This document shows, piece after piece, positions 23,768 to 61,300 of a DNA stretch of 64,000 bases. The stretch's first letter is position 1. Each line of letters begins with the position of its first letter. Position numbers and translations under genes: made by a program. The notes beneath the pieces are model-generated. The model searched no databases. It was not told the origin of the DNA and saw only the letters and a program-made list of their open reading frames with translations. The stretch is taken from the NCBI GenBank assembly GCA_021809545.1, contig JAKAYL010000001.1:101710-165709 (forward strand). The letters are read 5' to 3'. The DNA comes from Thermoplasmata archaeon. Its GTDB lineage: Archaea > Thermoplasmatota > Thermoplasmata > Lutacidiplasmatales > UBA184.

Positions 23768-24766
23768 TCACTCCGGAGCGGGGGTCCCCAGGATGGCCGA
23801 GAAGAAGTCCGAAAGGTCGTCCTGCCGGAACGCACTCCCGCAGTACGGGCAGGTTTGCAGCTTCGACTCAGAGGTCTCCTTGGTGACGCGGATCGAGGCG
23901 CCGCAGGAGGGACAACGATAGGCGGAGACGAGCCCGGACTGCCGGAACTGCTGGAGGAGCGCGGAGAGGTCGCGCTGAGAGACAGGGGATCCGCGGGCCC
24001 GGATCTCTCCGGCTTCTTGGAAGAAGCCCCCGATCTCGAAGACCTTCGCGGCCTCCTCGAACCGGCACGCCACGGAGAGGACATTGGCGATCCCCCGCAC
24101 CGAGTCGGCCCACGTGGTGTCCCAGTAGCTCCCGGCCCCGCGCGATATCGCCTTCTCCAGCATCTCGAGGAAGAACGGCTGGCCTCGGAGCACGACGAAC
24201 TGCGCGGGATCGGTGGAGTCGGGGTATAGCTTCCCCGTCCCATCGGAACCCATCTGAAGACCCCGGGTTCCCTGGAGAAGGGCGTCGACCGCGTACCGGA
24301 TCGGAACCCGCCGTGTCCCCTCCGTGCGGCAATACTGGCCGATGTGCCCGGTCAATTCCTTCGGGAGACCGGGAAGGTTCAGGACGAACTCCGGACCGTA
24401 AAAGCCTCGGGATTGGTCCACGGAGGTCCCTGCCTTCCGCAACCGCTCCCGCAGGTCGTCCAGAAGTCGGCTCGCCACGGCGACCGTCAGCAGACCTTCG
24501 GCGCAGTCGGGAGAACAGACTCCCGTCCGGGCCACCTCTTCGTCGAAGGAGTGGGAGAGGCCGAGATGATCCTCGGCGGAGTGGAGGGCATGGAGCGAGA
24601 GAACGACACCGCACTGACTGCAGATCTGTTTCGAGCAGGAGGCGCACGGGGTGATCTCGGACCGGGGCACCGATCTGCCGCAGGAGGGGCAGGGAAGCGG
24701 GGGCGCGTGCGGCGCCCGGTGGCGGACCCTGCCTAGGAACTCACCCGTAGACCTTTCCGCGCCCAT
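23768..24766 (-). CDS. hypothetical protein with N- and C-terminal zinc ribbons
   Basis: N-terminal CPSCG...CASCSKQICSQCG and C-terminal CPSCGASI...CPYCGSAF flank an uncharacterised roughly 230-aa core. A TATA-like element lies about 33 nt upstream on the minus strand. Confidence 0.5.
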   Translation of the reverse strand: MGAERSTGEFLGRVRHRAPHAPPLPCPSCGRSVPRSEITPCASCSKQICSQCGVVLSLHALHSAEDHLGLSHSFDEEVARTGVCSPDCAEGLLTVAVASRLLDDLRERLRKAGTSVDQSRGFYGPEFVLNLPGLPKELTGHIGQYCRTEGTRRVPIRYAVDALLQGTRGLQMGSDGTGKLYPDSTDPAQFVVLRGQPFFLEMLEKAISRGAGSYWDTTWADSVRGIANVLSVACRFEEAAKVFEIGGFFQEAGEIRARGSPVSQRDLSALLQQFRQSGLVSAYRCPSCGASIRVTKETSESKLQTCPYCGSAFRQDDLSDFFSAILGTPAPE

Positions 24767-24874: not shown

Positions 24875-27115
24875 ATGGGAACCTCAGGCACCGGCGCGAA
24901 CACTGAAGGGACCCCCCTCTCGGATTTTCCCCTCGATCCCCGGATCGCCGAGATCTTCCGTGCCGACGGCATCGACCGGCTCTACCCGCCCCAGGCCGCC
25001 GCCCTCGGCCCCGTGCTGGAGGGAAAGAGCGTCGTGCTCTCCTGCCCCACCGCTTCCGGGAAGTCGCTCGTCGCCTATGCGGCCATTGCTACGGCCGTTC
25101 TCAAGGGCGGTCGCTGCCTCTACATCGTCCCCCTGCGCGCCCTCGCCGGCGAGAAGTACCGCGATCTGCAGGCCTTTGAGAGACTGGGGATCAAGGTGGG
25201 CATCACGATGGGGGAGTGGGATCTCCCCGCCCGCGAGCTCGAGCAGATGGACGTCCTGGTGGCCACCAGCGAGAAGGCCGACAGCCTCCTCCGCCACAAG
25301 AGCAAGTGGATGGACGGACTGAGCGTGGTCGTCGCCGACGAGGTCCACCTCCTGCGCGAGCGGACCCGGGGTCCGACGCTGGAGATCACGCTCACCCGCC
25401 TCCACCGGCACAACCCGTCCCTTCAGGTCATCGCCCTCTCGGCCACCATCGCGAATTCCCGGCAACTCTCCGAGTGGCTGGACGCCGCTCACATCTACAG
25501 CACCTACCGGCCCGTGAAGCTCCGGTATGGGGTCTTCCTGGATGGCTGGGTCCGTTTCCTCGACGGGGACGCACGGCGCATGGATCCTCCCGGCGACCCG
25601 GTGGAGCGGTTGACCCGCACTGCGATCGAGGGCGGCGGGCAGAGCCTCGTCTTTGTCAACACGCGCAAGTCCTCGGAGTCGCTGGCCGACCGCCTTGGCG
25701 GGGTCGTCGAGAAGCTGCTCAAGGACGAGGAGAAGACCGGTCTCGAGGCCGTCTCGAAACGACTCCTCGGATCCTCGGAGGAGTTGACCGGCTCGGCCCG
25801 GAAGCTGGCGCTCCTCGTCGGGCGGGGGACCGCCTATCACAACGCCTCTCTCACCAACGGGGAACGCTTCCAGATCGAGGAGGCCTTCCGCAAGGGACTC
25901 CTCAAGTGCCTCGTGGCCACCCCGACGCTCGCCGCGGGGGTCAACCTCCCGGCCCGGCGGGTCATCGTGCGGGACCTCACGCGCTACGAGGACACGCTCG
26001 GGATGACCGCGCCCCTTCCGGTCTTCGAGGTGCAACAGATGTGCGGTCGGGCGGGACGCCCCCGCTACGATCCCTACGGAGAGGCCATCCTCATCGCCCG
26101 GACGGAGAGCGAGGAGCAGGACTCGCGGGAGCGCTACCTCCTCGCGCCGCCCGAGGAGGTCGACAGCAAGCTGGCCTCCGAGAGCGTCCTCCGGACCCAT
26201 CTTCTCGCCCTCGTCGCCTCCGACGAGGTCCGGAGCGAGAAAGAGCTCCGGGAGTTCATGCAGGGGACCTTCTACGGGCACCAGCTTCCCATCAAGGACC
26301 TGGAGGCCCATCTCTTCCTCGCCCAGGATTTCCTCGAGCGGCACGGTCTCCTCTTCCGAGGGGAGCTCCGGGCGACCCCGTTCGGGAAGATGGCCTCCGA
26401 TCTGTATCTCGACCCCGTGACCGCGGTGCTCATGCGCCTTGCCCTCAAGCGGGCGGGTTCCCACACCAACACCTTCTCCTACCTTGCGGCCGTGGCCGCC
26501 ACCCCCGACATCGCCCCGATGTACCTACGGCGGGACGACTATGCCCTGGTCCAGCCCAAGTGGGAGGAGGAGCAGCGGTCGCTCCTCCTTACGCACGAGG
26601 ACGAGATGCTCGAGATGGACGAGGAGACGTTCCTTTCCACCCTCAAGACCGCCATGGCCCTCGAGGAGTGGATCGATGACCGCAAGCCCCTCGCCACCAT
26701 CACGGAGACCTACGGTCTCGGCGCCGGTGACCTACACTCCCGGATCGAGCGGATGGAGTGGCTCCTTTCTTCCATGGGGCAGTTGGCCCGGTGGGAGCGG
26801 CGCGCGCTGGCGAACCCCCTCGACGAGCTCTCGGTGCGCGTCCGGTACGGGATCCGTCCCGAGCTCCTCGAGCTGGTCACCTTGCGGGGCATCGGGAGGG
26901 TCCGGGCCCGGCTCCTCTACCAGAACGGGCTCCGTACGCTCGACGATCTCCGGAAGGCCTCGGAAGGGGAGGTGGCCCACATCCTGGGCTCCCCCCTCGT
27001 CGCCAAGGACGTGCTCTCTCAGGTCAAGGGGGAAGGAAAGCGCTCGGTCCCCTCTCCCCAGGAGGAGGAGCGGCGCTGGGTCCAGAAGGAGCTCCTGGGA
27101 AAGGACTGGCCATAG
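24875..27115 (+). CDS. hel308: Hel308/Hjm-type Ski2-like DNA helicase
   Basis: 746 aa. Walker A CPTASGKS and DEVH, with a C-terminal winged-helix and HhH-like region. A TTAAAT element sits 37 nt upstream. Confidence 0.85.
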   Translation: MGTSGTGANTEGTPLSDFPLDPRIAEIFRADGIDRLYPPQAAALGPVLEGKSVVLSCPTASGKSLVAYAAIATAVLKGGRCLYIVPLRALAGEKYRDLQAFERLGIKVGITMGEWDLPARELEQMDVLVATSEKADSLLRHKSKWMDGLSVVVADEVHLLRERTRGPTLEITLTRLHRHNPSLQVIALSATIANSRQLSEWLDAAHIYSTYRPVKLRYGVFLDGWVRFLDGDARRMDPPGDPVERLTRTAIEGGGQSLVFVNTRKSSESLADRLGGVVEKLLKDEEKTGLEAVSKRLLGSSEELTGSARKLALLVGRGTAYHNASLTNGERFQIEEAFRKGLLKCLVATPTLAAGVNLPARRVIVRDLTRYEDTLGMTAPLPVFEVQQMCGRAGRPRYDPYGEAILIARTESEEQDSRERYLLAPPEEVDSKLASESVLRTHLLALVASDEVRSEKELREFMQGTFYGHQLPIKDLEAHLFLAQDFLERHGLLFRGELRATPFGKMASDLYLDPVTAVLMRLALKRAGSHTNTFSYLAAVAATPDIAPMYLRRDDYALVQPKWEEEQRSLLLTHEDEMLEMDEETFLSTLKTAMALEEWIDDRKPLATITETYGLGAGDLHSRIERMEWLLSSMGQLARWERRALANPLDELSVRVRYGIRPELLELVTLRGIGRVRARLLYQNGLRTLDDLRKASEGEVAHILGSPLVAKDVLSQVKGEGKRSVPSPQEEERRWVQKELLGKDWP

Positions 27116-27125
27116 TCCGCCCGCC

Positions 27126-28160
27126 TCAGAGCGAGACCCAGCTCCGCGAGCCTCCGTCTCCCCCGAGGGAGAATTCGCGCGAGAGCATTCCCCGGGCCTC
27201 CAACGCGGCCACATGTCGCCTCAGGAGCGACGCGGAGGGGGGGCGGCGGCCGTCCTGCCCGAGGTGCTCCGTCACCCGCCGATGAAGGAGGCTCATGGGG
27301 AGGCGTCGTCCCTGTTTTCTCAAACATTCCAGGATCGCAGCATCGACCAGGAGTGGTTTCCGCCGCCCGTCGGGTAGGTGAGGGAAGCCGATGTCCCCTT
27401 CCTCCACCCGGGAAGCCCCCCGGGCCTCCGCGCGTTCCCCCGCCTCCCGGACGAGCTCGACGGCGGCGGCGAGACCCACCCCGCGGGCCCGTGTTCTCTC
27501 GACCACCAAGGTGACGACCTCGGGAGCGGGGGGCCAGGCGAACGACTGCTGGCAAAGCTCGGAGATCCGGGCTCGCAGCTCGGCCGGTGTCGGAGGACGG
27601 ACCGCGATCCGGCGGATCTCCGGCCCTTCCCGGGCCGATTGGGTCGGGTCAAAGCACCCTGAGATCACGACCCGGAGCCCCGGGACCCACTCGACCTCCT
27701 CCGGGTCGAAGAGCGACCAGAGCAGCGGAAGGGAAGGGGTGCTACGCGAGTTGTCCAACCAGAGAACGAAGGGCGTTCCTTCGGCACGAAGACGGCGGGA
27801 GAGGAGGACGGCAAGCTGGCCCGCGGAGAACCCCTTGCCGGTGAACTGCGCGTCGAAATGAGCGAAGATCTCCACCAGGGCCTGGTGGTCCGTGCGGCAC
27901 TTCCGGAGATCGACCCTGAGGACCCGGACCGCCCTGTCCCTGCGGCCCGCAAAGGGGCTGCACGAGAGCACACGGACGACCCGGCCGGCCACGGTCGATG
28001 TTCCGCATCCGGAGGGCCCGGTCACGGCCAACACCTTCCACTCGGGGCCCGGACCCCGGGCTCCCGCTACCTCGTAGATCTCTTCGACTGCGACTCCTAC
28101 CAACGATCCCGCCGGCCCCCAAGGGCGCTCGAGGGCCCAGCGGTCTTTCCAGAGCTCCAT
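27126..28160 (-). CDS. Orc1/Cdc6-family AAA+ protein with degenerate Walker A/B and a C-terminal winged helix
   Basis: Collinear with Orc1/Cdc6 (lid and WH regions align). Walker A reads GPSGCGTS, with no lysine. Walker B reads LWLDNS. I place the start at the ATG complement 28158-28160, about 25 nt from a TATA-like element. The track gives a GTG at 28196. Confidence 0.5.
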   Translation of the reverse strand: MELWKDRWALERPWGPAGSLVGVAVEEIYEVAGARGPGPEWKVLAVTGPSGCGTSTVAGRVVRVLSCSPFAGRRDRAVRVLRVDLRKCRTDHQALVEIFAHFDAQFTGKGFSAGQLAVLLSRRLRAEGTPFVLWLDNSRSTPSLPLLWSLFDPEEVEWVPGLRVVISGCFDPTQSAREGPEIRRIAVRPPTPAELRARISELCQQSFAWPPAPEVVTLVVERTRARGVGLAAAVELVREAGERAEARGASRVEEGDIGFPHLPDGRRKPLLVDAAILECLRKQGRRLPMSLLHRRVTEHLGQDGRRPPSASLLRRHVAALEARGMLSREFSLGGDGGSRSWVSL

Positions 28161-28269
28161 GCAAGGGCCAAGGCTCATGCATATAAGAAATCTCACATAT
28201 CACAGTTGGATACAGCGTGGAGGCCACGGGGCCGAACCCTCCGGGGAGGGCGGTGGAGAGATTCCAGGG

Positions 28270-28300
28270 TTTGCACCAACCGATGCGGGCTTTGCACCAA
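28270..28300 (+). promoter_or_regulatory. two direct repeats GGG(c)TTTGCACCAA spaced 21 nt apart (28270-28279, 28291-28300)
   Basis: Exact 10-mer repeated on the same face of the helix, between the Orc1-like gene and the propeller gene. Confidence 0.35.
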
Positions 28301-28340
28301 AAGTGACTTAATGGGTCTCGGAGAATTCTTCTCCCAAGTT

Positions 28341-29879
28341 ATGCAGAGAACTCTTTGGACCTGTGCGGCCCTGGCCCTGTTGGTGATCGCCCTTCCGCTC
28401 GGTACCGCCTCTCCCGCTCGGGGAGCCGCACCCCTTCCGCGGGCGAGCGGTCCGGAATGGACCGAGTTCCAGGGAGACCTGAGCCTCACGGGGATCGCTC
28501 AGGGCGGCTCTCCGGCGGGGACCACCCTCTATTCCGTCAATGTCGCGAAGTACCTCGGTGGAACTCTGCCCAATCCCCTGAGCAACGACTACCCCTATCA
28601 GTCTTCTCCGGTCACGGATGGGAGCTCCGTTTACGTCGCCCTGGGAAACACTCTCCTGTCCTTCTCGGCCTCGAACGGTGCCTATCAGTGGCAGAGCAAC
28701 CTCCCCGGGGGCGGGGGTGGCGGGCCCGTCGTCGGCACCCCTTTCGTTGCGGGCGGTATGGTCTTCGTCAATCAGGACGGGGGCCCCAACGACCTGGCCG
28801 CGTTCTATGCCAACAACGGCACGCTCGCGTGGTCGCTCCAGCCTCCGGGCGGAGGCAGCGCGAGTTCGAGCTCACCGGTGCTCGCCAACGGTAACCTCGT
28901 GCTGACGGACACCTCGGGAGGTTTCTTCCTTCACCCGCCCTCGGGCACGGGCCCTTGGACCGCACCCTCCGTTCCCACCGGGGCAAGCTACTTCGCGACC
29001 GCCAGCTTCGGCACGATTTCCGGGGTAGGACCCGCCTGGATCATTCCCGATCGCGGGAACCGTTCCCTGGACGCCTTCTCCACGGCCGGGGTCGCCCTGC
29101 CCGGTTTCCCCATGAGCGGGCAGCCCCGGCTGGACCGGCTCTTCTCCTCGGCCTCTCTCGCGAACCTTTCGACCCCCGGGGGGGGCCTGGACACCTGGGC
29201 CTTCTTCGGAGGTGAGGGAGGGCAGGGAAACCCGAGCCACCTCTATGCAGTGGACGTGAGCCACCCCTCGCAGGTCTTCGCGCTGACCCTCCCGGCGGTG
29301 GGAACCGGAGACTCCGGCATCCGTTCGACCCCCGCAGTACTCGCTTCGGGATCCCTCGCCTCGCTGATCGTGGGTTCCCGGGACGGCGCCGTGATGCGCA
29401 TCAATTTCCAAGCGGCGAATCCCCTGTCGCCCACCTGGCAGTGGGGGTGGAACGCCTCGGCCGGCGGTCCTGTGGACGCCTCCCCCGTGGTGGTGGGAAG
29501 CGAGGTCATCGTGCCTTCGGAGAACGGGAACGTCTACTCGTTCGGGGTCGGGAATGGCACCCAGCTGTGGTCGGTCGCTACCGGGGCCCCCATCTATGCC
29601 AGCCCGGCCGTCGCGGGCGGCCTGTGCTGGGTCGTGAATTCGAACGGTGAGCTCCTGGCCCTCGGAGGCAACCTCCCCGGAGGCGGGAACGGCGTGATCC
29701 CGAAGGGGGGTGCGTCCGCCATCTCGACCCTCCTCATCCTCCTTGCCGCGGTCGCTGCCGTGGTGATCGCCACGATCCTCGTCCTCTGGCTCCACCTGCG
29801 ACGGCGGAAACCCGCCCAGCCCTCCCCAACGCCCCCGCCGCCCACACAACCCTCCGGAGCGACGTCCGGAGGGAGGTGA
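28341..29879 (+). CDS. secreted PQQ-like beta-propeller repeat protein (BamB-like fold) with C-terminal TM anchor
   Basis: ATG at 28341, in frame in track ORF 27858..29879. Signal-like N-terminus, Trp/Gly-rich propeller repeats and a C-terminal hydrophobic helix with a basic tail. Confidence 0.6.
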   Translation: MQRTLWTCAALALLVIALPLGTASPARGAAPLPRASGPEWTEFQGDLSLTGIAQGGSPAGTTLYSVNVAKYLGGTLPNPLSNDYPYQSSPVTDGSSVYVALGNTLLSFSASNGAYQWQSNLPGGGGGGPVVGTPFVAGGMVFVNQDGGPNDLAAFYANNGTLAWSLQPPGGGSASSSSPVLANGNLVLTDTSGGFFLHPPSGTGPWTAPSVPTGASYFATASFGTISGVGPAWIIPDRGNRSLDAFSTAGVALPGFPMSGQPRLDRLFSSASLANLSTPGGGLDTWAFFGGEGGQGNPSHLYAVDVSHPSQVFALTLPAVGTGDSGIRSTPAVLASGSLASLIVGSRDGAVMRINFQAANPLSPTWQWGWNASAGGPVDASPVVVGSEVIVPSENGNVYSFGVGNGTQLWSVATGAPIYASPAVAGGLCWVVNSNGELLALGGNLPGGGNGVIPKGGASAISTLLILLAAVAAVVIATILVLWLHLRRRKPAQPSPTPPPPTQPSGATSGGR

Positions 29880-37613: not shown

Positions 37614-38111
37614 ACCCCCCTAAGGCGGGGCCATGTTTATTAAGTACACCCTAATTATTTGGTTCAAACAAAGATGCGGGAAGCCGAAAGGAGTCAGGTG
37701 CCTACCGAGCCAAGGTGAACCATCGAACGGGGAAGCCTCGACTTTCAACCGACCAGCGTAGAAATGCAGGAATCCCGAGGCAAATTCTCAGCGGCGGCGG
37801 TCACCCATTTGTGCCGATCCCCACTTCCTTCTCGGTAGCTTTCGACCCGGTATCCCTAGTTGCGCTCGTCCCCATCCTTGAACTCTCTCTGTACGGTTCA
37901 CAAGAAACACAAGAACTGTCGAGTATCCTACTCATAACACAGATACCCGAATTCCCGATGGAACGTTCCAAGCCGAGCACTCTTGACCGATTCAATTCCA
38001 CCGATGATTGCCACACTGTAAATCAACCAGTTCCTTACCAGAAAAGGGGAACAAGACCGCTAGCGTTGGGTACTGCAGCGACTCCGCGCGAACACTGGCC
38101 CGATACAGTTC

Positions 38112-38120
38112 TTTAAAATA
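38112..38120 (+). promoter_or_regulatory. TATA TTTAAAATA 35 nt upstream of the low-GC-island gene
   Basis: Seen directly. Confidence 0.45.
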
Positions 38121-38154
38121 TGCACCGTCCTTTACTACTTGCTTTGTAACGGAA

Positions 38155-39102
38155 ATGAGTTGCAAGAGTGCATCCAATGGTAGGCGAACGGCAATCAATC
38201 AAAACGCCAGACAAGCTTTGGTGGTAATCCTATCGATAGCCGTAGCCGTGCCCCTGAATGGCTGGCTGCTCTACGAGGAGTTCTGGGGTCATCACGTCGA
38301 ATGTTCGGTTGGGAATGCTGTGGCCAACAGCGAGATGGTGACTCCCTACGCCATGGCGAATCGCCCCTATCTGGGTGGGAACCAGACGATGAACATCAGC
38401 TACCTGGCGGGCCCGGACTACACGTTCGATTCAGGTGGCTTGCGAGTGACCACGCCGTTGTTTTCACCGATGTCACGAACCAATTATGCCTATCAGTCCG
38501 TTGTGGCTTGGGGTAATCTTTCCTTCACGAATGAGTCTTACATTTGGACCGTTGCAGTTTACTGGGACTTCAACTGGACGATCTACTCTGTGAAGAACGT
38601 CAGTGTGTTCACCTCGAACCCTAGCGAGCCGTGCACGCAAGCATACGTGGCCATGGTAGCCAATGAGGGAGCATTCATGACTAGCGGAGGAAGTCAGGTT
38701 GTCGGTTCCCTTCCGTTGCAGAACTCCACCACGGATGCCAGTGAGGGGCACTATCTCCCCTCCAACAATCTGAGCGTCACGGGAGACTGGCCAAGCATTT
38801 GGTACAACAACAGTTTCTATGGGTCCAATCGCCCCACCATTGACACTTGCAATCAAAGCAACGATACAGTGATCAAGTCGTACGGTTGGGTCTACCTCCC
38901 TATCGCGGTCACCTTGAGGGCAGGGGGGCACAACGTAACGGCATATGGTTCGCTGGGGTGGAGCGGGGGGCCGAGCCCCTCTTCGAGCAACCCTGCGACC
39001 ATGACTTACGTCTTTCCTGCCCACGGTGGCATCTGGAAAGTCTATTCCATTCCGGGATCAGGGAATCCTGGAGCCTTGGCGTTCCAGTACTATTCGTGTT
39101 GA
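38155..39102 (+). CDS. secreted/anchored protein rich in Asn-x-Ser/Thr sequons, inside a low-GC island
   Basis: ATG at 38155 with TTTAAAATA 35 nt upstream. N-terminal hydrophobic anchor. At least 14 N-x-S/T sequons. Local GC is about 50% against about 65% for the window. Confidence 0.45.
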   Translation: MSCKSASNGRRTAINQNARQALVVILSIAVAVPLNGWLLYEEFWGHHVECSVGNAVANSEMVTPYAMANRPYLGGNQTMNISYLAGPDYTFDSGGLRVTTPLFSPMSRTNYAYQSVVAWGNLSFTNESYIWTVAVYWDFNWTIYSVKNVSVFTSNPSEPCTQAYVAMVANEGAFMTSGGSQVVGSLPLQNSTTDASEGHYLPSNNLSVTGDWPSIWYNNSFYGSNRPTIDTCNQSNDTVIKSYGWVYLPIAVTLRAGGHNVTAYGSLGWSGGPSPSSSNPATMTYVFPAHGGIWKVYSIPGSGNPGALAFQYYSC

Positions 39103-44215: not shown

Positions 44216-46999
44216 TCACTGCGGGGGGAAGCTCCCCTGGAACTGCCGGTCCCTCCGGTGCTTGCGGGCGATCACGACAAGGGCCACGGCCCCGACGATG
44301 ACCACTCCGGAGATGAGCGCCCAGTCCGCGAGCGCGGTCGTGCTGGGGCCCGACGAGGGACCGGACGAGGGGGGCACGGCGGCCTTGACCACGAGGGAGT
44401 AGGTCGCGAAGACCTGTTGGCCTGCCGGGTCGGAGACCGCCACGGTCACCGTGAAGTTACCGGCGACCCCCGGTGTGCAGAGGAGGGAGGCCGTGTCCGC
44501 GGAGGTGCATCCCTGCGGAAGCCCCGAATAGGAGTACGTGAGGGGGGTATCCCCGCCGTTCGTTGTGACGTTGAGGTAGGTGCCCTCGCCCACAAGGTCC
44601 GGGTTCCGGCTCGCGGCGTACCCGACGATCTTCAGGGGGGACACTGCGACAGTGACCGCCACGTTGGTGGAGGCGAAGACCGAGTGACCCAGCGCATCGG
44701 TCAACTGGACCTGCACGGTGAAGTTCCCCGCCGCGGAGGGCGTGCAGTTGAGAGAGGAGGTGTTCGCCGAGGAGCACCCGGTCGGCAGGCCCGAATAGCG
44801 GATCGAGTAGGGAGCCTGACCCCCGGACGCCGACACCCGGAGGACCGTGGTCCCCCCGAGGGTGAGGCTCGCGGGAGTGGCCGTGAACGTTTGGATGGAC
44901 GGGTACCCTGCGGGCGAGGTGACGGTAAGGCTGGCCCCCCGGGTCGCCTGATGACCCGCTGCATCGGTCACCACCGCGGTGACCGTGAAGGTGCCCGCCG
45001 CGGTCGGGGCGCAGGAAAGGGAGGCCTGGTTCGCCGAGCTGCACCCCAGCGGCAGTCCCTGATAGGAGTACACGAGGGGAGCAACTCCCCCGCTAGCCGT
45101 GACATTGAGGTAGACCGTCCCGTTCACGGAGACAGTGGATGGTGCGATCGTGAAGGCAGAGATCGTCGGTGAGCTGGGGGTCACGGGCGACACGGTGAAG
45201 ACGACAGATCCTGTCGTGATCTTTCCCGAGGAATCCGTCACGGAGACGGTGACCGTGAAGGGACCCGTGGCGGTGGGAGTGCAGAGAAGAGTGTTCTGGT
45301 TGGCGGTGGCACATCCCGCGGGCAGCCCGATATACGCGTAGGAGTAGGGGGCGACCCCTCCCGTGGCCGAGACCGTGAGGGTGGTGGAGTTCCCGAGTGT
45401 GAAGTTCTGGGGGGAGGCCGTGAAGGCAGTGATGACCAGTCCGGGGGCGGCCACGGTGAGGAGGGCTCGTGAGCTCGTGACCGTCGTTCCCCCAGCGTCG
45501 GTCACGTTCACCTGGACAGAGAAGTTGCCCGAAGCGGTGGGCGTGCAGGCAAGGGACGCCGTACTGGACGTCGTGCATCCGGACGGAAGACCCGTGTACG
45601 CGTAGGAATAGGGAGTCGTCCCCCCGGTGGCCGTCACGTTGAGGTAGGTCGTGCCCCCCAACGGAATGGTGGAGGGACTCACCGTGAACTGGGAGATGAT
45701 GAGCGCCGACGCCGTGATAGCGAGGGTCGTGGTGGCCGACGTGGACTGGCTGCTGGGGTCCGTGACCGTGACCTGCACGGTGAAGTTTCCGGCCGCGGTA
45801 GGGGTGCAGGAAAACGAGGCGCTGTTCGAGCTGGTGCACCCCGCGGGAAGGCTGGTGTAGGCGTAGGTATACGGGGTGACGCCCCCGGTGACGGAGGCCT
45901 GGAACGTCGTGGCATTCCCAAGCTGGAGTGCGGCCGGGGAAGCGATGAAGGAGGAGATCGCAAGCGCGGGCGGGGCAGTGACAGTGAAACTGCATCCCGC
46001 ACCGGAGGAGTTGGTGAGCCCTTTGCTGTCAGTGATCGTGACGGTGGGGTTCACGGTCCCGGCGGAGAGGTATACATGGGTGGGGGTCTGGCCCGTTCCG
46101 GTGGACCCGTCCCCAAAGGCCCACGCGTAGGTGTACGGCGAAGTTCCCCCCGTGGGGGTCGCAGAGAATTGGATCGTGTTGCCCGCGGCGAAGGTGCCTC
46201 CGCAGAGGAGACTGGTCGATGTCGTCGTGTCGCTCATGGCGTAGGACACACTGAGGGGGGTGGAGGATGAGTTCCCGCAGACGTTGCCGGGGCAGACCGT
46301 GCTCCAGGGGAGGTTGGCCAGGTTTTCCCCGCCGCTCGGGAAGCCGTTGGTGGAATCACAGAGCATGGAGCCGGTCCCCGCGAAGCCTACGGGAGCCCAC
46401 TTGCAGTAGGCGCCACTGAGGTAGCTGCCCCAGAAGTTGTAGGAGTTATAGTTGTAGTAGGCGAGGGCCCACTGGAAGGAGCAGAGGGGGTTGAAGTAGA
46501 TGCCACCCCAGTCCGACGAGCTCCCCGACCAGGTGGAGCACGAGGAGGGGCTGTACCCGGAGACAGCGAAGGATCCGCCTGCGGGGGGGCACTGTCCCCC
46601 CGTGCCCTCCTGTAGGATCCCCTCGGCGTCCGGAAGGCCGGAACCGCAACCGGGGCTCGTGGACATGCAGGTCCCGCTGCCGGACTCGATGGCGCCCGGG
46701 CAGAAGGTGCTCTCTTGATAGGCCATGGAGACGAAGGTGATCTCAAGGTTCCCGGAGAAGCCGGCCGCTCCGGCGCAGTCGACGGTCTGCTGGAGGTCCA
46801 TCTGGGTCCCGCTGCCGTAGTAGTACACATTGGGGCAACTGTTCTGCGCGACCGAGGGGACGCCCCCAGAGGTCGTCGGTGCGGCGGACGCGAAGGGGAC
46901 CACCGCGAACGCAGACAAGAGGAGGGGAAGGAGCAAGAGGGAGAGGCCCACCGCTCTCCGGCGCAGACGGCCGGGGCTCGGAACGGACCTCAGAAGCAA
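44216..46999 (-). CDS. large PKD-repeat cell-surface glycoprotein with C-terminal TM anchor
   Basis: Signal peptide RRRAVGLSLLLLPLLLSAFAVVPFASA follows a TTG start with GGAGG 7 nt upstream. It carries at least eight roughly 90-aa repeats (...TGGTTPYSYAYTGLPSGCTTS...GNFSVQVNVTD...), a PKD-like motif FGDGSTGTG, and a C-terminal TM helix with a basic tail. The track ORF extends farther upstream. Confidence 0.7.
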   Translation of the reverse strand: MLLRSVPSPGRLRRRAVGLSLLLLPLLLSAFAVVPFASAAPTTSGGVPSVAQNSCPNVYYYGSGTQMDLQQTVDCAGAAGFSGNLEITFVSMAYQESTFCPGAIESGSGTCMSTSPGCGSGLPDAEGILQEGTGGQCPPAGGSFAVSGYSPSSCSTWSGSSSDWGGIYFNPLCSFQWALAYYNYNSYNFWGSYLSGAYCKWAPVGFAGTGSMLCDSTNGFPSGGENLANLPWSTVCPGNVCGNSSSTPLSVSYAMSDTTTSTSLLCGGTFAAGNTIQFSATPTGGTSPYTYAWAFGDGSTGTGQTPTHVYLSAGTVNPTVTITDSKGLTNSSGAGCSFTVTAPPALAISSFIASPAALQLGNATTFQASVTGGVTPYTYAYTSLPAGCTSSNSASFSCTPTAAGNFTVQVTVTDPSSQSTSATTTLAITASALIISQFTVSPSTIPLGGTTYLNVTATGGTTPYSYAYTGLPSGCTTSSTASLACTPTASGNFSVQVNVTDAGGTTVTSSRALLTVAAPGLVITAFTASPQNFTLGNSTTLTVSATGGVAPYSYAYIGLPAGCATANQNTLLCTPTATGPFTVTVSVTDSSGKITTGSVVFTVSPVTPSSPTISAFTIAPSTVSVNGTVYLNVTASGGVAPLVYSYQGLPLGCSSANQASLSCAPTAAGTFTVTAVVTDAAGHQATRGASLTVTSPAGYPSIQTFTATPASLTLGGTTVLRVSASGGQAPYSIRYSGLPTGCSSANTSSLNCTPSAAGNFTVQVQLTDALGHSVFASTNVAVTVAVSPLKIVGYAASRNPDLVGEGTYLNVTTNGGDTPLTYSYSGLPQGCTSADTASLLCTPGVAGNFTVTVAVSDPAGQQVFATYSLVVKAAVPPSSGPSSGPSTTALADWALISGVVIVGAVALVVIARKHRRDRQFQGSFPPQ

Positions 47000-47209
47000 A
47001 GAGTTCCCTCCTTCCGTGGGAGCGGGCAGATCCGTTCGTGGGTTCGACTCCCAAGATCTCGCGCAGTGTGTGCCATGATGCCAGTGGGCAGGGAGAAGGT
47101 GGAGGTCGTATTTAATGGATGCTGTCGAGGGTGGCAGCGGCGCAACCCACCGCCAGAACCCGGGGCACGGCTCCGGCTTATCTATTCCATCCGTCTCCGT
47201 TTTCCCGCG

Positions 47210-47824
47210 ATGGGGACCAAGGAAGACCGCAGTGCGCGTCTCCTGCAGCAGCGCAGGGAGGAACGGTCCTCCCCGTACCGGCTCTCCAAACTGGGGCACG
47301 ACTTCTACCCCGGGACGCGGGAGTACCTGGAGGAGCTCCGTTCCCTCCTCGAGAAGGAGCTCAAGGAGAACCCGATGTCCCAGAAGGTGGATTTCACGCG
47401 GGGCCAGTACCAGCGGGCCCTCGCCTCGGCCCTCGAGGTGCGCAACCTGCGCATGGGAAAGATCGCCAGCCTCGCAGCGCTCGCCGCGGCGAGCGGCACC
47501 GGCGCGGACGAGCTTCTCCCCGAGGAGAAGGGGCTCTACGAGGCCCTTTTGCGCGAGCTCAAGGCCTTTGCCCACCAGTACGAGTTCGACAGCGCCCGGG
47601 AACGCAGCGTGGACACTCCCCCGGCCGCCACCCCCCAGAGCCCTCCCGCCTCTCGCAAGCAGATGGTCGTCCGCATCGTGGCGGACGACCCCCAGTCCCC
47701 CCTCGAGACGACGGGGATGACCCCTCTCCACAAGGAGGAGATCGCCTCCCTCCCGGAGGAGGCGGCCCGTGCCCTCCTCGACGCAAAGCGTGCCGTCACC
47801 GTAGACACTTCGAAATGCAGCTGA
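47210..47824 (+). CDS. hypothetical alpha-helical protein (possibly replication/GINS-like; unverified)
   Basis: ATG at 47210 with CTTATCTATTCC about 25 nt upstream. Its stop overlaps the RNase Z start by 10 nt. Confidence 0.4.
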   Translation: MGTKEDRSARLLQQRREERSSPYRLSKLGHDFYPGTREYLEELRSLLEKELKENPMSQKVDFTRGQYQRALASALEVRNLRMGKIASLAALAAASGTGADELLPEEKGLYEALLRELKAFAHQYEFDSARERSVDTPPAATPQSPPASRKQMVVRIVADDPQSPLETTGMTPLHKEEIASLPEEAARALLDAKRAVTVDTSKCS

Positions 47825-48720
47825 CCTTCCTCGGCACCGCGGGATCCTGGCCCACAAAGGAGCGCAACGCGAGCGCCGTCGCGCTCGACATGGACACCGA
47901 GGTGGTTCTTCTCGATTGCGGGGAAGGGACCCAGCGCCAGTTCTTCCTCAGCCCGATCTCCTTCATGCGCGTCCGGAGGATCCTCATCACCCATTTCCAC
48001 GGGGACCACTTCCTCGGTCTTCCCGGGCTCATCCAGAGCATGGGGCTGAACAACCGCACCGAACCGATCGACATCTACGGTCCCGCAGAGGTGGAGAGGT
48101 TCGTGGCGGCGATCATGGAACTCGGTCACTTCACCAAGAAGTTTCCCGTGAACGCCCACCCCGTGGAACCCGGAGAGGAGGTCGACCTCGGCACCTATAC
48201 CGTGCGTGCGGCCCGGGCGGCCCATCCCGTCCCCGCCCTCGCCTTCCGCATCCAGGAGAAGGACAAACGCGGGCGCTTCGACGCGGACCGGGCCCACGCC
48301 CTGGGCTGCCGGGGTCGGGATTTTGCCCACCTTGAGAGGGGCGAGACCGTGACCCTGGGGAACGGCACGGTGGTCACTCCGGCCATGGTGATCGGCCCTC
48401 CCCGGCCGGGCCGCTCGGTGGTCTACACGGGGGACACCGCCCCTTCTCCTGAGATCGTCCGTCTGGCCCAACAAGCGGACGTTCTCATCCACGAGGCCAC
48501 CGTTGAGCTCTCCCTGGAGAAGGAGGCCAACGAGTGGGGGCACTCCTCGGCCCGACAGGCGGCGCAGGCCGCCCGCGAGGCCGGGGTGGGCGAGCTCTAC
48601 CTCACCCACTTCTCCTCCCGCTATCCGGATGTGACCCCCCTCGAGAACGAGGCACGGGAGCATTTCGAGCGTTCCGTCGCCGCCCACGACCTGTTCACTA
48701 CCATCCTGCATCAACGGTGA
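47815..48720 (+). CDS. rnz: ribonuclease Z (tRNA 3' endonuclease, MBL fold)
   Basis: N-terminus MQLTFLGTAGSWPTKERN, motif HFHGDHFLGLPGL, and C-terminal ...THFSSRY. Confidence 0.85.
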   Translation: MQLTFLGTAGSWPTKERNASAVALDMDTEVVLLDCGEGTQRQFFLSPISFMRVRRILITHFHGDHFLGLPGLIQSMGLNNRTEPIDIYGPAEVERFVAAIMELGHFTKKFPVNAHPVEPGEEVDLGTYTVRAARAAHPVPALAFRIQEKDKRGRFDADRAHALGCRGRDFAHLERGETVTLGNGTVVTPAMVIGPPRPGRSVVYTGDTAPSPEIVRLAQQADVLIHEATVELSLEKEANEWGHSSARQAAQAAREAGVGELYLTHFSSRYPDVTPLENEAREHFERSVAAHDLFTTILHQR

Positions 48721-57473: not shown

Positions 57474-58265
57474 ATGAAGGCACCCCTCCCCTCTTCGGCC
57501 ATCACCTTCGACCTCTGGCACACGCTCATCTACCTTGGCCCCCGGGCCGAGGAACGCTACGTGCAACGACAGATCTCCCTGGCCGTCGAGACCCTGGAGG
57601 TCGCGCGACCGCTTCCGGGAGCCCCCCGGCGGAGCCGGGAGGACCTCGCGGCCATCTTCCAGCAGGAAAGGGTCCGCGCGGTCGCGGAAGCCGACAAGGG
57701 ACACGTCGTGTCCCTCACGGAGCAGTTGACCCGGGTGGCGCGGGCCGCGGGACGGCAGCCACGCCCCGCAGCATACCTGACGGCACTGGGAAAAGAGATC
57801 GCCCGTACCCCCTTCCGGATGGCTCCCGGGGCGATCGCGACCCTTCGGAGACTCCGTTCGGAGGGCTACCGGATTGCCGTGGTCTCGAACACCGTGGGGG
57901 AGCCGGGGGCTTTCCTGCGTCCCATCCTTCACCGGATGGGGCTCGACCGCGGGTACGAGTTCGCCCTCTTTAGCGACGAGGAGCGATGGACGAAGCCCGC
58001 ACCGGCCATCTTCCGGAAGGCCCTCCGGGCCTTGGGCTCCCGCCCCTCGCAGGCGCTCCATGTCGGGGACGGATGGGGCGACCTCGAAGGCGCTCGCCGG
58101 GCCGGATACCGTGCCGGGATCTACTTCACGGGGCTCCAGGAGTACGGGCCCAGCTACCGGGCGCTCCACGCTGCCTCGAATACGAAGGACCTTGGCGCGG
58201 ATTTCCGGATCCAACGCTTGGCGGAGCTACCCGCCCTGGCGCGGAAGCTCCTGCCGGTACCCTAG
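57474..58265 (+). CDS. HAD-family hydrolase
   Basis: N-terminal ITFDLWHTL (DxD-variant motif I), ...VSNT..., ...GDGW.D... ATG at 57474 in frame in track ORF 57291..58265. Confidence 0.65.
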   Translation: MKAPLPSSAITFDLWHTLIYLGPRAEERYVQRQISLAVETLEVARPLPGAPRRSREDLAAIFQQERVRAVAEADKGHVVSLTEQLTRVARAAGRQPRPAAYLTALGKEIARTPFRMAPGAIATLRRLRSEGYRIAVVSNTVGEPGAFLRPILHRMGLDRGYEFALFSDEERWTKPAPAIFRKALRALGSRPSQALHVGDGWGDLEGARRAGYRAGIYFTGLQEYGPSYRALHAASNTKDLGADFRIQRLAELPALARKLLPVP

Positions 58266-58333
58266 CCCGTCACCTTAGGCTTCGGACCTCTCCAGGGATC
58301 CCAAGCGGGACCTCCGTCCACCGTCCTTCTTCC

Positions 58334-58342
58334 CTTATATAT
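58334..58342 (+). promoter_or_regulatory. TATA CTTATATAT 26 nt upstream of the giant surface-protein ATG
   Basis: Seen directly; no SD, consistent with leaderless mRNA. Confidence 0.45.
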
Positions 58343-58363
58343 CGACGCCTCCTTCCCTGCCCC

Positions 58364-61300
58364 ATGCCAAGGCGCATCAACCCCCTCCTTGCCCGAGCGA
58401 TCCCTGTCGTGCTCCTGATCGTCCTTCTCGCGGTTCCCGGGAACGGCGTCCTCACCTCCCCCTCTCCTCGGTCGGTTACCCTGGGAGCGGGGTCGTCTTC
58501 CCTGGCCGGGCTCTCCTCCCCCTTCGCACCGGTCCAGTACCCGGTCACGTTCCAAGAGAGGGGGCTCCCGGCCGGGACGAACTGGACCGTCGTGCTGAAC
58601 GGCTCGGCGACCTACTCTCTGGGTTCCTTCGCCTCCTTCTCGGTACCCAACGGAAGCTACTCCTACCATCTTCCCGTCGTAGCAGGGTTCACCCCTTCCC
58701 CCTCCTCGGGCCGCGTGCTCGTCACCGGGACCCCGGTCCTCACGACGATCCACTTCCTTCCCGCGGCGGTCCAGAACACGCTCTCCCTGTTCAACAACAC
58801 GCTGCTGCCGGGCAACGCCACCGCCCAGAGCGGCAGCCAGCCCTTCGCCTCGGCCTTCGATGCGGCCACCGGCACGCTCTTCGTTGACGACTACGCCACC
58901 AGCAACGTGGCGATGGTCAACACCACGACCCGGAGCGTGACGGGCTACGTGCCCCTCGTCGGGCTCCCCTGTGGCATCGCCTACGACAGCACGAACGGCT
59001 TCCTCTACGCGTCCGTGCTCACCAACGGCGCCCTCGCCGCCGTGAACGGGACGACCGGATCGGTGACGGGCTATCTCCACGTCGGGAAATCTCCCTGCGC
59101 GGTGGCCTACGATCCTGTGAACGACAAGATCTACGTGACCAACACCGAGAGCAACTCGGTGGTCGTCGTGAACCCCTCCAGCTTCTCGGTGACCGCGACC
59201 GTCGCGGTAGGCAACGTGCCTCGGGCGCTCGCCGTGGACACCGTGACCGGCAACGTCTACGCGGTCTCCATGAACGGGAACAAGCTGGTCGAGATCAGCG
59301 GGGCGACCAACACGGTCCTCGCGAACACGACCACCCTTCCCAGCCCCGATGCGATCGCCTACGATGCGCACACCACCAACCTCTATGTCGCGAGCTTCAA
59401 CGACAGCACGGTCACCGTGTACGCGGTCGCCACGCTCAAGGCCGTGGGAAATGTCTCGGTGGGCTCCAAGCCCTTCGCCCTGGCCTACGAACCCTCCAAC
59501 TTCGCGGTGTACTCAGCGAACTACTTCTCCGACAATGTGTCGGCGATCTCGGGCCTCACGCTCGCCGCGACCCTGACCGCAGGGGCAAACCCGGAGGGGG
59601 TCGCGGTCGATGCCTCAGGGAACGTTTACGTTGCCAACCGAGGATCCAGCAACCTCACCCTCCTCGCGGCCGCGACGAACCAGGTCATCGGCTCCATCCC
59701 CGTGGGATGGTCACCCTCGGCCGTGGCCTACGACCCACTGGCCACAGCGTTCGTCGTGGCCAACCAGGTCACGGACACTCTCTCCGTCGTGAGCACCTCC
59801 ACCGGACGGTCGGTCGGCACCGTCCCGGTGGGAAGCGGTCCCGGGGCGCTGCTCTACGACGGGGTCGACCACCTCCTCTTCGTAGCCAACACCCGCTCCG
59901 ACAACCTGACGGTCCTCAACCCCACTACCTTCGCCCCGGTCGCCAGTCTCCCGGTGGGATCGGACCCCGTGGCCCTGGCCTACGACACGGCCAACGCACG
60001 GCTGTACGTGGCGAACAGACTCTCCGGGAACCTGAGCATCATCGATCCCGCGACCCCGTCGGTCGTCGGGTCCCTGGCCACGGGAGGGTCCCCCGGGGCG
60101 CTCCTCGTCGATCCCCTCAATGGCCTCCTCTACGCGGTGGGCGTCTCCGCCCAGAATCTGACAGCCTACAACGTCACCTCAGGAAAGGTCGCGGGTACGG
60201 TCGCGGTCGGAAGCTTCCCCTCGGGGATCGCGATGGACCCCTCGACCGGGTTCCTCTACGTGGCGAATTACGCGTCGAACTCCGTCACGGTCGTGAACGG
60301 CACGGACAACACCGTGGTCTCGTCCTTCTCCGCCGGCTCGGAGCCGGCGGCCATCGCCTTCGATGCGGAGACCCGGGGCGTCGAGGTGGTCGACTTCGCC
60401 TCCAACAGCCTGGCGATCTACTCGACGGAGACCCAAACGCTCGTCGGGCTCCTTCCCCTCAACAACTCCGGACCGGTGGCGGAGGACCTTTCCCCCTCCA
60501 CAGGCATGGTGGCCGTCGCGGACCAGCTCTCGGGGGCCCTCTCGCTCGTCCACCTTCAAGTCCTCCCGGCGGTCTTCCCCGTCTCCTTCACGGAGTCCGG
60601 ACTACCCTCCGGGACGAACTGGTCCGTCACGGTGAACGGTACCTCCTCCTTCTCCGTCGGGCCGGCGATCCGGTTCTCCCTGGTGAACGGGTCGTACTTC
60701 TACACGGTCGCCCCCGTGCCGGGCTTCGTCTCCACTCCGACCTCGGGTGATCTCTCGGTCAACGGCACCATCCTCACCGTCCCGGTCTCCTTCACCCGGG
60801 TGATCCTCCACTACACCGTTTCCTTCACCGAGCTCGGACTCCCTGCGGGAACCAACTGGTCCGTCTCCGTGAACGGGTCGACCCAAGGCTCCAACACCAC
60901 CTCGATCTCCTTCCTGCTGCCGAACGGGAACTACCCGTATTCCGTGGGAAGTTCCCTAGGGTACGGCCCTTCGCCCAGGTCCGGGACCCTGACCGTCCTC
61001 GATGGGCCGGTGACCCAGATCGTGGAGTTCCAGCTTCCCGTCTACAACATCACCTTCCAAGAGAAGGGCCTTCCCGCGAACACCTCCTGGTCGGTCGCGC
61101 TCAACGGTTCCGCAGCGACCTCCCGTACTTCGGCGATCGCCTTCGCGAACGGCTCGGCGCAACCCAACGGGACGTATCCCTTCCACATCGACAGCCTGCC
61201 CGGCTACGTCCCGGAGCCGGCGGCTGGGAACGTGATCGTGAACGGCTCGTCCCGGGTCGTTTCGGTGACCTTCGTCCAGATGACCTATTCCGTCACCTTC

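Follow-up and report, generated by a model that had tools for sequence, protein, structure and literature searches.

What does a protein of the Orc1/Cdc6 family do once both residues that run its ATP switch are gone, and does the gene that encodes it lie beside a replication origin? These questions are raised by a 64,000-nucleotide stretch of the genome of a Thermoplasmata archaeon (contig JAKAYL010000001.1, positions 101,710 to 165,709), which was analyzed as a whole and which we call the window (GC content, ~0.66). On its minus strand, at 27126..28160, is a gene for a protein of 344 amino acids with an AAA+ base, a lid, and, at its C terminus, a winged helix (the gene's stop codon occupies 27126-27128). 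A sequence-only reading had described this protein as a motif-degenerate Orc1/Cdc6 paralog encoded next to hel308. It had also suggested that an AT-rich block, a small GC hairpin, and a pair of exact repeats just upstream might be an origin-like or auxiliary replication element, or, alternatively, that the protein might be a repurposed regulator.

Archaeal Orc1/Cdc6 proteins are understood as binary switches driven by ATP: with ATP bound, they recruit MCM or activate damage-response promoters, and hydrolysis switches them off. As described below, the protein belongs to a clade in which both halves of the switch have been removed, while the fold and the elements that contact DNA have been kept, and the P-loop has retained its shape. 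The clade is a natural experiment on the Orc1 scaffold without ATP turnover. On balance, and by no wide margin of confidence, we lean toward the view that the lysine-less protein is a DNA-binding derivative of Orc1 that has no ATP switch, that does not license replication but acts, for instance, as a regulator, and that has no origin beside it.

An Orc1/Cdc6-type clade with both Walker motifs altered

On its own, the protein sequence scores weakly against curated models: 35.1 bits for TIGR02928, whose cutoff is 181.3, and a sub-threshold 14.8 (versus 27) for Pfam's Cdc6_lid. Single-sequence searches of Pfam, NCBIfam, and the PDB (with phmmer) gave only sub-threshold or spurious matches, such as to cytidylate kinase, and a family profile was needed. 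A word-indexed search found three proteins, and their alignment seeded an exhaustive HMMER search, which returned 177 relatives. The best-scoring ~80 of these (cluster representatives) are all lysine-less, with a Walker A motif of the form GPxGxG[TS]S and a Walker B motif that is either W[LF]D[NQ], as in the subgroup that includes the window's protein, or hhhLDD. Canonical Orc1/Cdc6 proteins (GxxGxGK[ST]...hhhhDE) enter the results only below E ~1e-11. In a rough neighbor-joining tree, the lysine-less proteins form a separate clade, and so far its members have been seen only in uncultured high-GC Thermoplasmata.

Profile, profile-profile, and fold comparisons all identify the product of the open reading frame (ORF) as a full-length Orc1/Cdc6-type protein. 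When a profile of 54 aligned members was compared to the PDB, it matched Aeropyrum pernix ORC1 (2v1u, E = 5.6e-27), Sulfolobus solfataricus Orc1-1 (2qby_A, E = 1e-20), and Pyrobaculum aerophilum Cdc6 (1fnn, E = 2e-18); the match to A. pernix ORC2 (1w5s, E = 1.4e-14) was weaker than those to the Orc1-1-type structures. Aligning the family to a set of canonical Cdc6 proteins with hhalign gave a probability of 99.96% and an E value of 7e-39 over 353 columns, with residues 3-344 covered. This bears out the collinearity with archaeal Orc1/Cdc6, through the lid and the winged helix, that had been read from the sequence. The AlphaFold2 model of the protein has a pLDDT of 88, and the best structural match for the AAA+ base plus the helical lid is an Orc1/Cdc6-type fold.

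The elements that would contact DNA can be placed within this framework. The C-terminal winged helix (residues ~269-344; 27129..27356, minus strand) aligns with that of canonical Cdc6 and has a recognition helix ...LLRRHVAALE... and a wing GGDGGSRS; in the model it consists of helices at residues 269-283, 289-302, and 310-322 and strands at residues 327-331 and 339-343. The Pfam winged-helix model PF09079 matches seven family members, with a best E value of 1.7e-4. A sequence like the initiator-specific motif (ISM), GKGFS at residues 108-112 (27825..27839, minus strand), aligns with P.RGFS of canonical Cdc6 in the hhalign comparison. Along with the AAA+ base, the ISM, the lid, and the glycine-rich wing, an N-terminal 'vL..dW.P' motif is kept.

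Read directly from the sequence, the Walker A motif is GPSGCGTS (27996..28019, minus strand), with Thr54 at the canonical lysine position. The Walker B motif is VLWLDN (27750..27767, minus strand), in which Asp136 is kept and Asn137 occupies the site of the catalytic glutamate. The sequence-only reading was therefore correct about both motifs, and alignment to the Orc1/Cdc6 family confirms that the lysine and glutamate sites have both been replaced. The same holds for the rest of the clade. Among the 54 full-length lysine-less members that were aligned, on which all of the column counts are based, the lysine column contains T (41), S (10), R (2), or A (1) but no K (0/54), and the glutamate column contains D (35), N (10), Q (8), or G (1) but no E (0/54). 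We also considered another 80 loci, drawn from JGI metagenomes, which fall into 45 clusters at 80% identity. None of these loci encodes the lysine (0/80); the residue after the Walker B aspartate is another aspartate in 78 of the 80 and glutamate in just one.

Conservation within the clade is strongest in the ISM, in the arginines and the wing of the winged helix, and in the shape of the P-loop. G48, G51, and G53 of the P-loop are invariant, as are G110 of the ISM (54/54) and R315, R328, G333, and G334 of the winged helix and wing. S55, which follows the lysine site, is serine in 50 of the 54 members and threonine in the remaining four, and the Walker B aspartate D136 is kept in 52. An arginine that aligns beside the sensor-2 position is kept in 30 of 36 members of the LDD subgroup (those whose Walker B motif reads LDD) and is mostly lost in the window's subgroup. 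Pairwise identity between members falls to ~25%. From these alignments, the loss of the two motifs is a fixed, selected feature of the clade and not the private decay of one paralog; the suggestion of a single degenerate paralog did not hold up, as the same state is found across the whole clade.

Compared to the archaeal Orc1/Cdc6-1 initiators (2v1u and 2qby_A), clade members have the same domain order and the same fold over their full length. They share the 'L.pDy.P..l..Re' motif, the ISM ('RGFS'), the 'pY...eL..I...R' box, the lid, and the glycine-rich wing. The differences lie elsewhere: the Walker A lysine is mostly threonine or serine; the Walker B glutamate is mostly aspartate, asparagine, or glutamine; the sensor-1 position is glycine; the sensor-2 arginine lies one residue away from its canonical place or, in the subgroup of the window's protein, is missing; and the recognition helix has a signature of its own, TT.WRR..RLE. 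Unlike the initiators, the clade scores below the TIGR02928 cutoff and is found without an adjacent origin-like spacer or origin recognition box (ORB) repeats. The other lysine-less members score at most 54 bits with TIGR02928, whereas a canonical Thermoplasmatota Cdc6 that we used as a control (P0107) scores 220.5 bits.

Because no member reaches the curated Orc1 cutoff, public annotations call these proteins "hypothetical protein" or "ArsR family regulator." Replication-gene censuses of metagenome-assembled genomes (MAGs) of Thermoplasmata will miss them, as they fall below every curated Orc1 threshold. The searchable literature yielded no account of a lysine-less Orc1/Cdc6 clade. The clade is a variant of a known family, neither a new fold nor a new system; its active site is in an unusual, conserved state, and its genomic position is conserved as well.

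The upstream region and the question of an origin

Whether the AT-rich block lies inside or outside the gene depends on the start codon. As read from the sequence, the ORF spans 27126..28196 (minus strand), but the start is almost certainly the ATG at 28160 (MELWKDRW..., 344 amino acids): it is the start in the public gene calls of the identical protein P0001, the N termini of the relatives align at MELW, and a conserved TATA box lies 21 nt upstream. A start at GTG 28196 was rejected on the basis of the gene calls, the N-terminal alignment, and the position of the TATA box. With the start at ATG 28160, the AT-rich block is upstream of the orc-like gene and not within it.

The block itself (28170..28215) is present as described. 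Its GC content, 0.37, is among the lowest 0.15% for 46-nt segments, although the window has 10 other blocks of this kind. Within it, the TATA-box core TCTTATA (28182..28188, minus strand) occupies positions -28 to -22 relative to the ATG and is part of a stretch, GAGATTTCTTATAT, that resembles a transcription factor B recognition element (BRE) plus a TATA box. On the gene's strand, the block reads into the start codon as ...GTGAGATTTCTTATATGCATGAGCCTTGGCCCTTGC-ATG. In the window and in loci L020, L025, and L027, TCTTATA is invariant and equally far from the start codon, and 78 of 79 further metagenome loci have a TCTTATA-like box that precedes the start codon by 21-23 nt. The promoter consensus over 67 unique sequences is ggTaAacAGaATTCTTATAatccatAGttAt. 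Such a fixed spacing between TATA box and start codon is what an archaeal BRE/TATA promoter for a leaderless mRNA would show. Judging from this conservation, the AT-rich block is the orc-like gene's own BRE/TATA core promoter; the transcription start site and the leaderless transcript are predictions from the same sequences.

Two other features of these promoters are conserved across the 67 unique loci (for example, L036-L115) and in the window (28161-28200, minus strand): 'T.A..AG.A' upstream of the TATA box and 'AG' 6-7 nt downstream of it. These could be a BRE plus an initiator element, or else an operator. We also considered whether GATTTC in the promoter might be the DNA-damage-response (DDR) element of Sulfolobus, ANTTTC, but dropped this idea because the match is inexact.

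The GC hairpin CCCTCCGGGGAGGG is present at 28237..28250, as had been noted, but its occurrence is at the level of chance: hairpins with 6-bp stems are so common in the window (202, or ~3.2 per kb, versus ~151 in random sequence) that this one is unremarkable. The two direct repeats, GG(G/C)TTTGCACCAA, span 28267..28300 (plus strand) and are 21 nt apart from start to start, with exact 10-mers at 28270 and 28291, in agreement with the sequence-only reading. The 10-mer TTTGCACCAA is rare (5 matches with at most one mismatch in the window versus 0.66 expected). However, close repeats of 10-mers are common in the window (14 exact 10-mers recur within 40 nt versus 6.6 +/- 3.3 in random sequence), so the statistical weight of the pair is modest. 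The repeats are present in all 10 loci from conspecific strains and in no other locus that we fetched. Since these strains are 99.7-99.95% identical, their agreement is uninformative, and the repeat block is not conserved in any relative beyond them. The pair is a putative species-specific, operator-like element, for a transcription factor, in the divergent promoter region, just upstream of the promoter of the neighboring PQQ gene.

That divergent neighbor (28341..29879, plus strand) encodes a secreted or membrane PQQ-like beta-propeller protein (Pfam PQQ_2). Its annotated start is at 28311, but the ATG at 28341 (MQRTLW..., which resembles a signal peptide) is more likely, because the gene call in strain L013 uses this second ATG after an insertion. 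In L013, which is one of the 10 conspecifics, an IS110 element of ~1.5 kb with a 421-amino-acid DEDD transposase (L013:6483-7993) has inserted between 28338 and 28339, a point 38 nt past the second TTTGCACCAA repeat that immediately precedes the PQQ gene's second ATG.

The spacer does not have the layout of an origin. It is ~150-180 nt long, and its two direct 13-mers lie on one side, with none flanking the AT-rich block. In 59 relatives, the noncoding gap upstream of the orc-like gene has a median length of 92 nt (interquartile range, 65-169 nt), which is too short for an origin; some gaps are just 10-40 nt, and in L025 only 38 nt separate the gene from a co-directional yjbQ. Outside the species, the only conserved element of the spacer is the TATA box. 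A search for ORB or mini-ORB repeats found no ORB-like cluster in the window: the euryarchaeal ORB core TTCCANNGGAAA and a candidate motif, GCTTTCGCNCACCCC, which was taken from the flanks of a canonical cdc6 gene in L035, both had matches at chance level, and a window-wide search for repeats turned up only the coding repeats of surface proteins and no ORB-like families. An Rfam scan of 26-30 kb had no match above noise. A scan for sigma-70 promoters and intrinsic terminators, which is irrelevant for an archaeon, had no match either.

GC skew was examined within the window only. The cumulative curve does have a local minimum near 29-30 kb, which coincides with a switch in gene orientation, but 64 kb is too short to locate an origin. 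Per-gene skew follows gene orientation (-0.067 for plus-strand genes versus +0.036 for minus-strand genes, p = 6e-6), so the local turn is explained by the coding strand.

Three other parts of the window stand out in composition or repeats. At 37620-39100, ~1.5 kb of low-GC sequence (~0.58 versus 0.66) contains 5 of the 11 AT-rich 46-nt blocks and no repeat clusters. An ORF in this stretch (38008/38178-39102, plus strand) encodes a protein with a hydrophobic N terminus; the stretch looks horizontally acquired and is unlike an origin. Two very large ORFs, at 44216-47857 (minus strand) and 57986-61705 (plus strand), have internal tandem coding repeats (6 copies of ~267 nt, and 4-5 copies of ~126-243 nt). 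They probably encode surface or adhesin-like proteins, and the window's strongest skew excursions are due to them.

Genomic context of the family

The gene for the Hel308/Hjm-type helicase (24875..27115, plus strand; Pfam DEAD, Helicase_C, and Helicase_dom4_arc) is indeed adjacent to the orc-like gene. The two are convergent, tail to tail, with their stop codons 10 nt apart. The same convergent pairing is found in the divergent lineages represented by P0037 (L020-22), P0156 (L025/26), and P0024 (L027/28) and in 65 of the 65 metagenome loci that have enough downstream sequence. Members linked to hel308 are present in both subclades of the rough neighbor-joining tree, and the hel308-linked position is probably ancestral, with the window's gene as a positional ortholog. 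Between lineages, the Hel308 proteins are 53-58% identical and the orc-like proteins just 25-33% identical.

As evidence of functional coupling, this synteny carries less weight than it might, because the whole neighborhood of the LDD subgroup is conserved: a gene of the isocitrate/isopropylmalate dehydrogenase family (Iso_dh) and a mechanosensitive channel gene upstream, and acyl-CoA dehydrogenase and NFACT genes downstream. The window is the informative case, because its outer flanks are different (the PQQ-repeat and zinc-ribbon proteins) and yet the pair persists. The zinc-ribbon protein (23768-24766, minus strand) is 332 amino acids long, has Cys-x2-Cys motifs at both ends (with a faint match to IBR), and is divergent from hel308. 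It is specific to the version of the locus in the window's species; relatives have acyl-CoA dehydrogenase at this place. Loci of the LDD subgroup show an overlap of 115-137 nt between the 3' ends annotated for the orc-like gene and for hel308 (L020:9161-9291, L025:7140-7254, and L027:7079-7215), owing to low-complexity C-terminal tails that are rich in Pro, Ala, and Gly. The window's protein has no such tail and terminates directly after the wing of the winged helix.

Three closer relatives of the window's protein (P0002, P0003, and P0004; 36-44% identity) are not linked to hel308. Their neighbors are PIN, UvrD/PDDEXK, IS605, ISL3, AbiEi, and PemK genes or runs of small unknown genes. In two of these islands, the orc-like gene is followed by a conserved pair of genes, for a protein of ~133 amino acids that resembles a winged helix-turn-helix (wHTH) protein and for a protein of ~190 amino acids; these are 35% and 34% identical between the islands. 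The orc-like, wHTH-like, and ~190-amino-acid genes together span L005:10001-12128 and L023:6001-7935 (and are also in L024). Going by this arrangement, it is possible that the trio is a three-gene module of a mobile element. Neither partner gene belongs to a Pfam, PHROG, or PADLOC family (PADLOC gave only a weak wHTH similarity), and neither is present in the window. In the rough tree, the island copies nest inside the window's subclade. A viral or plasmid origin of the orc-like gene was considered as well: no relatives turned up in IMG/VR, PLSDB, or PHROGs; matches in BFVD were to generic AAA+ proteins only.

No canonical Walker A Orc1 is encoded in the 64-kb window, and none was found within 6-10 kb of ~90 family loci; our look-ups did not reach an assembly that carries the lysine-less gene. 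Other MAGs and metagenomes of high-GC Thermoplasmatota do contain canonical Cdc6 genes that pass TIGR02928 (220 bits).

Possible roles of the lysine-less protein

Mutants of Orc1 paralogs indicate what each Walker residue does. Orc1-1 of Sulfolobus islandicus with K69A does not bind ATP; it occupies oriC1 in vivo but supports no initiation. Orc1-1 with E147A binds ATP without hydrolysis and over-initiates (PMC3607249). Orc1-2 of the Sulfolobales is a non-initiator, global regulator of DDR transcription (PMC9738581, PMC6061795), for which ATP binding turns regulation on and hydrolysis turns it off: K72A is inactive, with DDR regulation and most DNA-complex formation lost, and E154A is lethal (PMC9738581). 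More generally, paralogs of the Cdc6/Orc1-2 type do not coincide with origins (PMC3914693). The viral Orc1 of the pleolipovirus SNJ2 is a DNA-damage switch (PMC10123103).

By analogy to these proteins, we infer that the lysine-less protein binds DNA, has no ATPase activity, and has a regulatory role. It would dock on specific DNA through its ISM and winged helix, much as Orc1 does. Because both the Walker A lysine and the Walker B glutamate are missing, neither Orc1 switch should be able to run, and the cycle of an ATP-bound "on" state and an ADP-bound "off" state that licenses MCM loading would not be possible; the protein would instead be a constitutive, hydrolysis-independent DNA-binding factor. 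Its likeliest role would be that of a non-initiator transcriptional or architectural regulator, of the Orc1-2 or the viral-Orc1 kind, perhaps with a tie to replication-fork repair via hel308. An initiator with an adjacent origin would be less likely. The repurposed regulator that had been offered as an alternative is probably the best of the available readings; it is supported by the conservation of the clade and by the absence of origin features.

Several observations weigh against a switchless regulator. Since the K72A form of Orc1-2 is inactive, a lysine-less protein could not simply work as Orc1-2 does. The family profile matches initiator-type Orc1-1 structures better than it matches A. 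pernix ORC2. The invariant P-loop glycines and the Walker B aspartate suggest that a phosphate-bearing ligand is still bound, in which case the protein may not be nucleotide-free. Most of the linkage to hel308 could be plain synteny, given the conserved neighborhood of the LDD subgroup. Finally, a genome with no canonical Orc1 would make the lysine-less protein the initiator.

Two rival explanations keep the protein in replication. In one, 28161-28340 is a secondary or auxiliary origin, with the AT-rich block as the unwinding element, the TTTGCACCAA repeats as mini-ORBs, and the Orc1-like protein as a dedicated initiator. Archaeal initiator genes are usually beside their origins (PMC3607249, PMC1868953), the oriC1 neighborhood of Haloferax volcanii holds both orc1 and hel308 (PMC1868953), the AT-rich block is extreme for the window, and the exact repeats have a spacing of two helical turns. 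However, the block has proved to be a promoter, whose TATA box keeps a fixed distance to the start codon (78 of 79 relatives); such a hairpin is expected by chance; the spacers are short, with repeats on one side only; the repeats are limited to strains of one species, and the window has no ORB-like families; the skew follows gene strand; and a true initiator whose Walker A lysine is mutated is unable to fire its origin (PMC3607249). An origin-like or auxiliary element at this site was not borne out, and we consider it very unlikely. In the other explanation, the lysine-less clade is the initiator of its lineage, alone or as the partner of a canonical Orc1, and acts at an origin elsewhere, using a noncanonical P-loop or recruiting MCM without a switch. 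The best profile matches are to initiator-type Orc1-1 structures, and the full initiator architecture is kept, including the ISM and the N-terminal motif. The P-loop glycines, the serine after the lysine site, and the Walker B aspartate are conserved, as expected for a phosphate pocket that is in use. Island copies are found in a context where Orc1 homologs commonly act as replication proteins (PMC3914693), and no canonical Orc1 was seen in the window or within 6-10 kb on either side of the ~90 family loci. On the other hand, initiators normally adjoin their origins, and no lineage has an origin-like spacer by this gene; K69A abolishes initiation by Orc1-1 (PMC3607249); canonical Cdc6 is present in high-GC Thermoplasmatota from comparable metagenomes; and the orc-like family evolves about twice as fast as hel308. 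An initiator acting elsewhere seems unlikely to us. That the clade is a working part of initiation, either as the sole Orc1/Cdc6, licensing MCM without an ATP switch, or as an inert partner of a canonical Orc1, seems distinctly unlikely.

Two further explanations were weighed. The gene might be a domesticated remnant of a plasmid or virus, or part of a defense or mobile island, that serves the element as a replication protein or as a switch for lysogeny or DNA damage. The closest relatives (P0002-P0004) do sit in island-like contexts, two of them with the conserved three-gene module, and the viral Orc1 is a precedent for a regulatory switch (PMC10123103). But the window's gene has a host-like composition (GC, 0.70; GC at third codon positions, 0.81), its flanks are of the housekeeping type, the hel308-linked position is common to both subclades while the island copies are nested (in a rough tree), the module's partner genes are absent from the window, and searches of viral contigs, plasmids, PHROGs, and PADLOC had no match. 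We regard such an origin as improbable. The idea that the ORF is a decaying paralog, or functional pseudogene, with eroded catalytic motifs is refuted by conservation across the family. A single sequence that scores far below the curated Orc1/Cdc6 thresholds and has lost both catalytic residues might be taken for one, but at least 54 diverged, full-length members all have the substitutions, with structural and DNA-binding residues invariant, the fold is predicted with confidence, the promoter is conserved, and the reading frame is intact in 10 of 10 conspecific strains.

Among characterized proteins, Orc1-2 of the Sulfolobales is a close parallel to the regulator that we propose. Both have the Orc1/Cdc6 fold, neither is associated with an origin, and a DNA-binding regulator that acts through its ISM and winged helix is what we propose for the clade as well. 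Orc1-2 has a link to DNA repair, and the clade's link would be its conserved neighbor, hel308. They differ in that the Walker A and B motifs of Orc1-2 are canonical and both are required, whereas both are altered in the clade. If the regulator reading is true, the clade would be a third independent re-use of Orc1 outside initiation, and one linked to a fork-repair helicase, Hel308.

Orf8 of SNJ2 is an Orc1 homolog from a mobile element that acts as a regulator within a three-gene module, in the lysogeny-induction switch of this haloarchaeal pleolipovirus. The island copies of the clade resemble it in their setting, a conserved three-gene module that includes a wHTH protein. Unlike them, Orf8 has the Walker A lysine (Lys-53), its partner genes are unrelated to theirs (no PHROG match), and the window's copy is found without a module.

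If the clade does take part in initiation, it would bear on the rise of inert subunits in the eukaryotic origin recognition complex. As an inert partner, it would be an archaeal parallel to eukaryotic Orc2 and Orc3; as the sole Orc1, it would be a naturally occurring case of an initiator for which MCM licensing does not depend on the canonical ATP switch. Eukaryotic Orc2, Orc3, and other AAA+ pseudo-ATPases have kept their fold and their contacts to DNA or partners and have lost their Walker motifs. The inert subunits of the eukaryotic complex act in a fixed hetero-hexamer beside active subunits, whereas archaeal Orc1 binds DNA as a monomer. Unlike Orc2 and Orc3, the lysine-less clade has retained the glycines of its P-loop.

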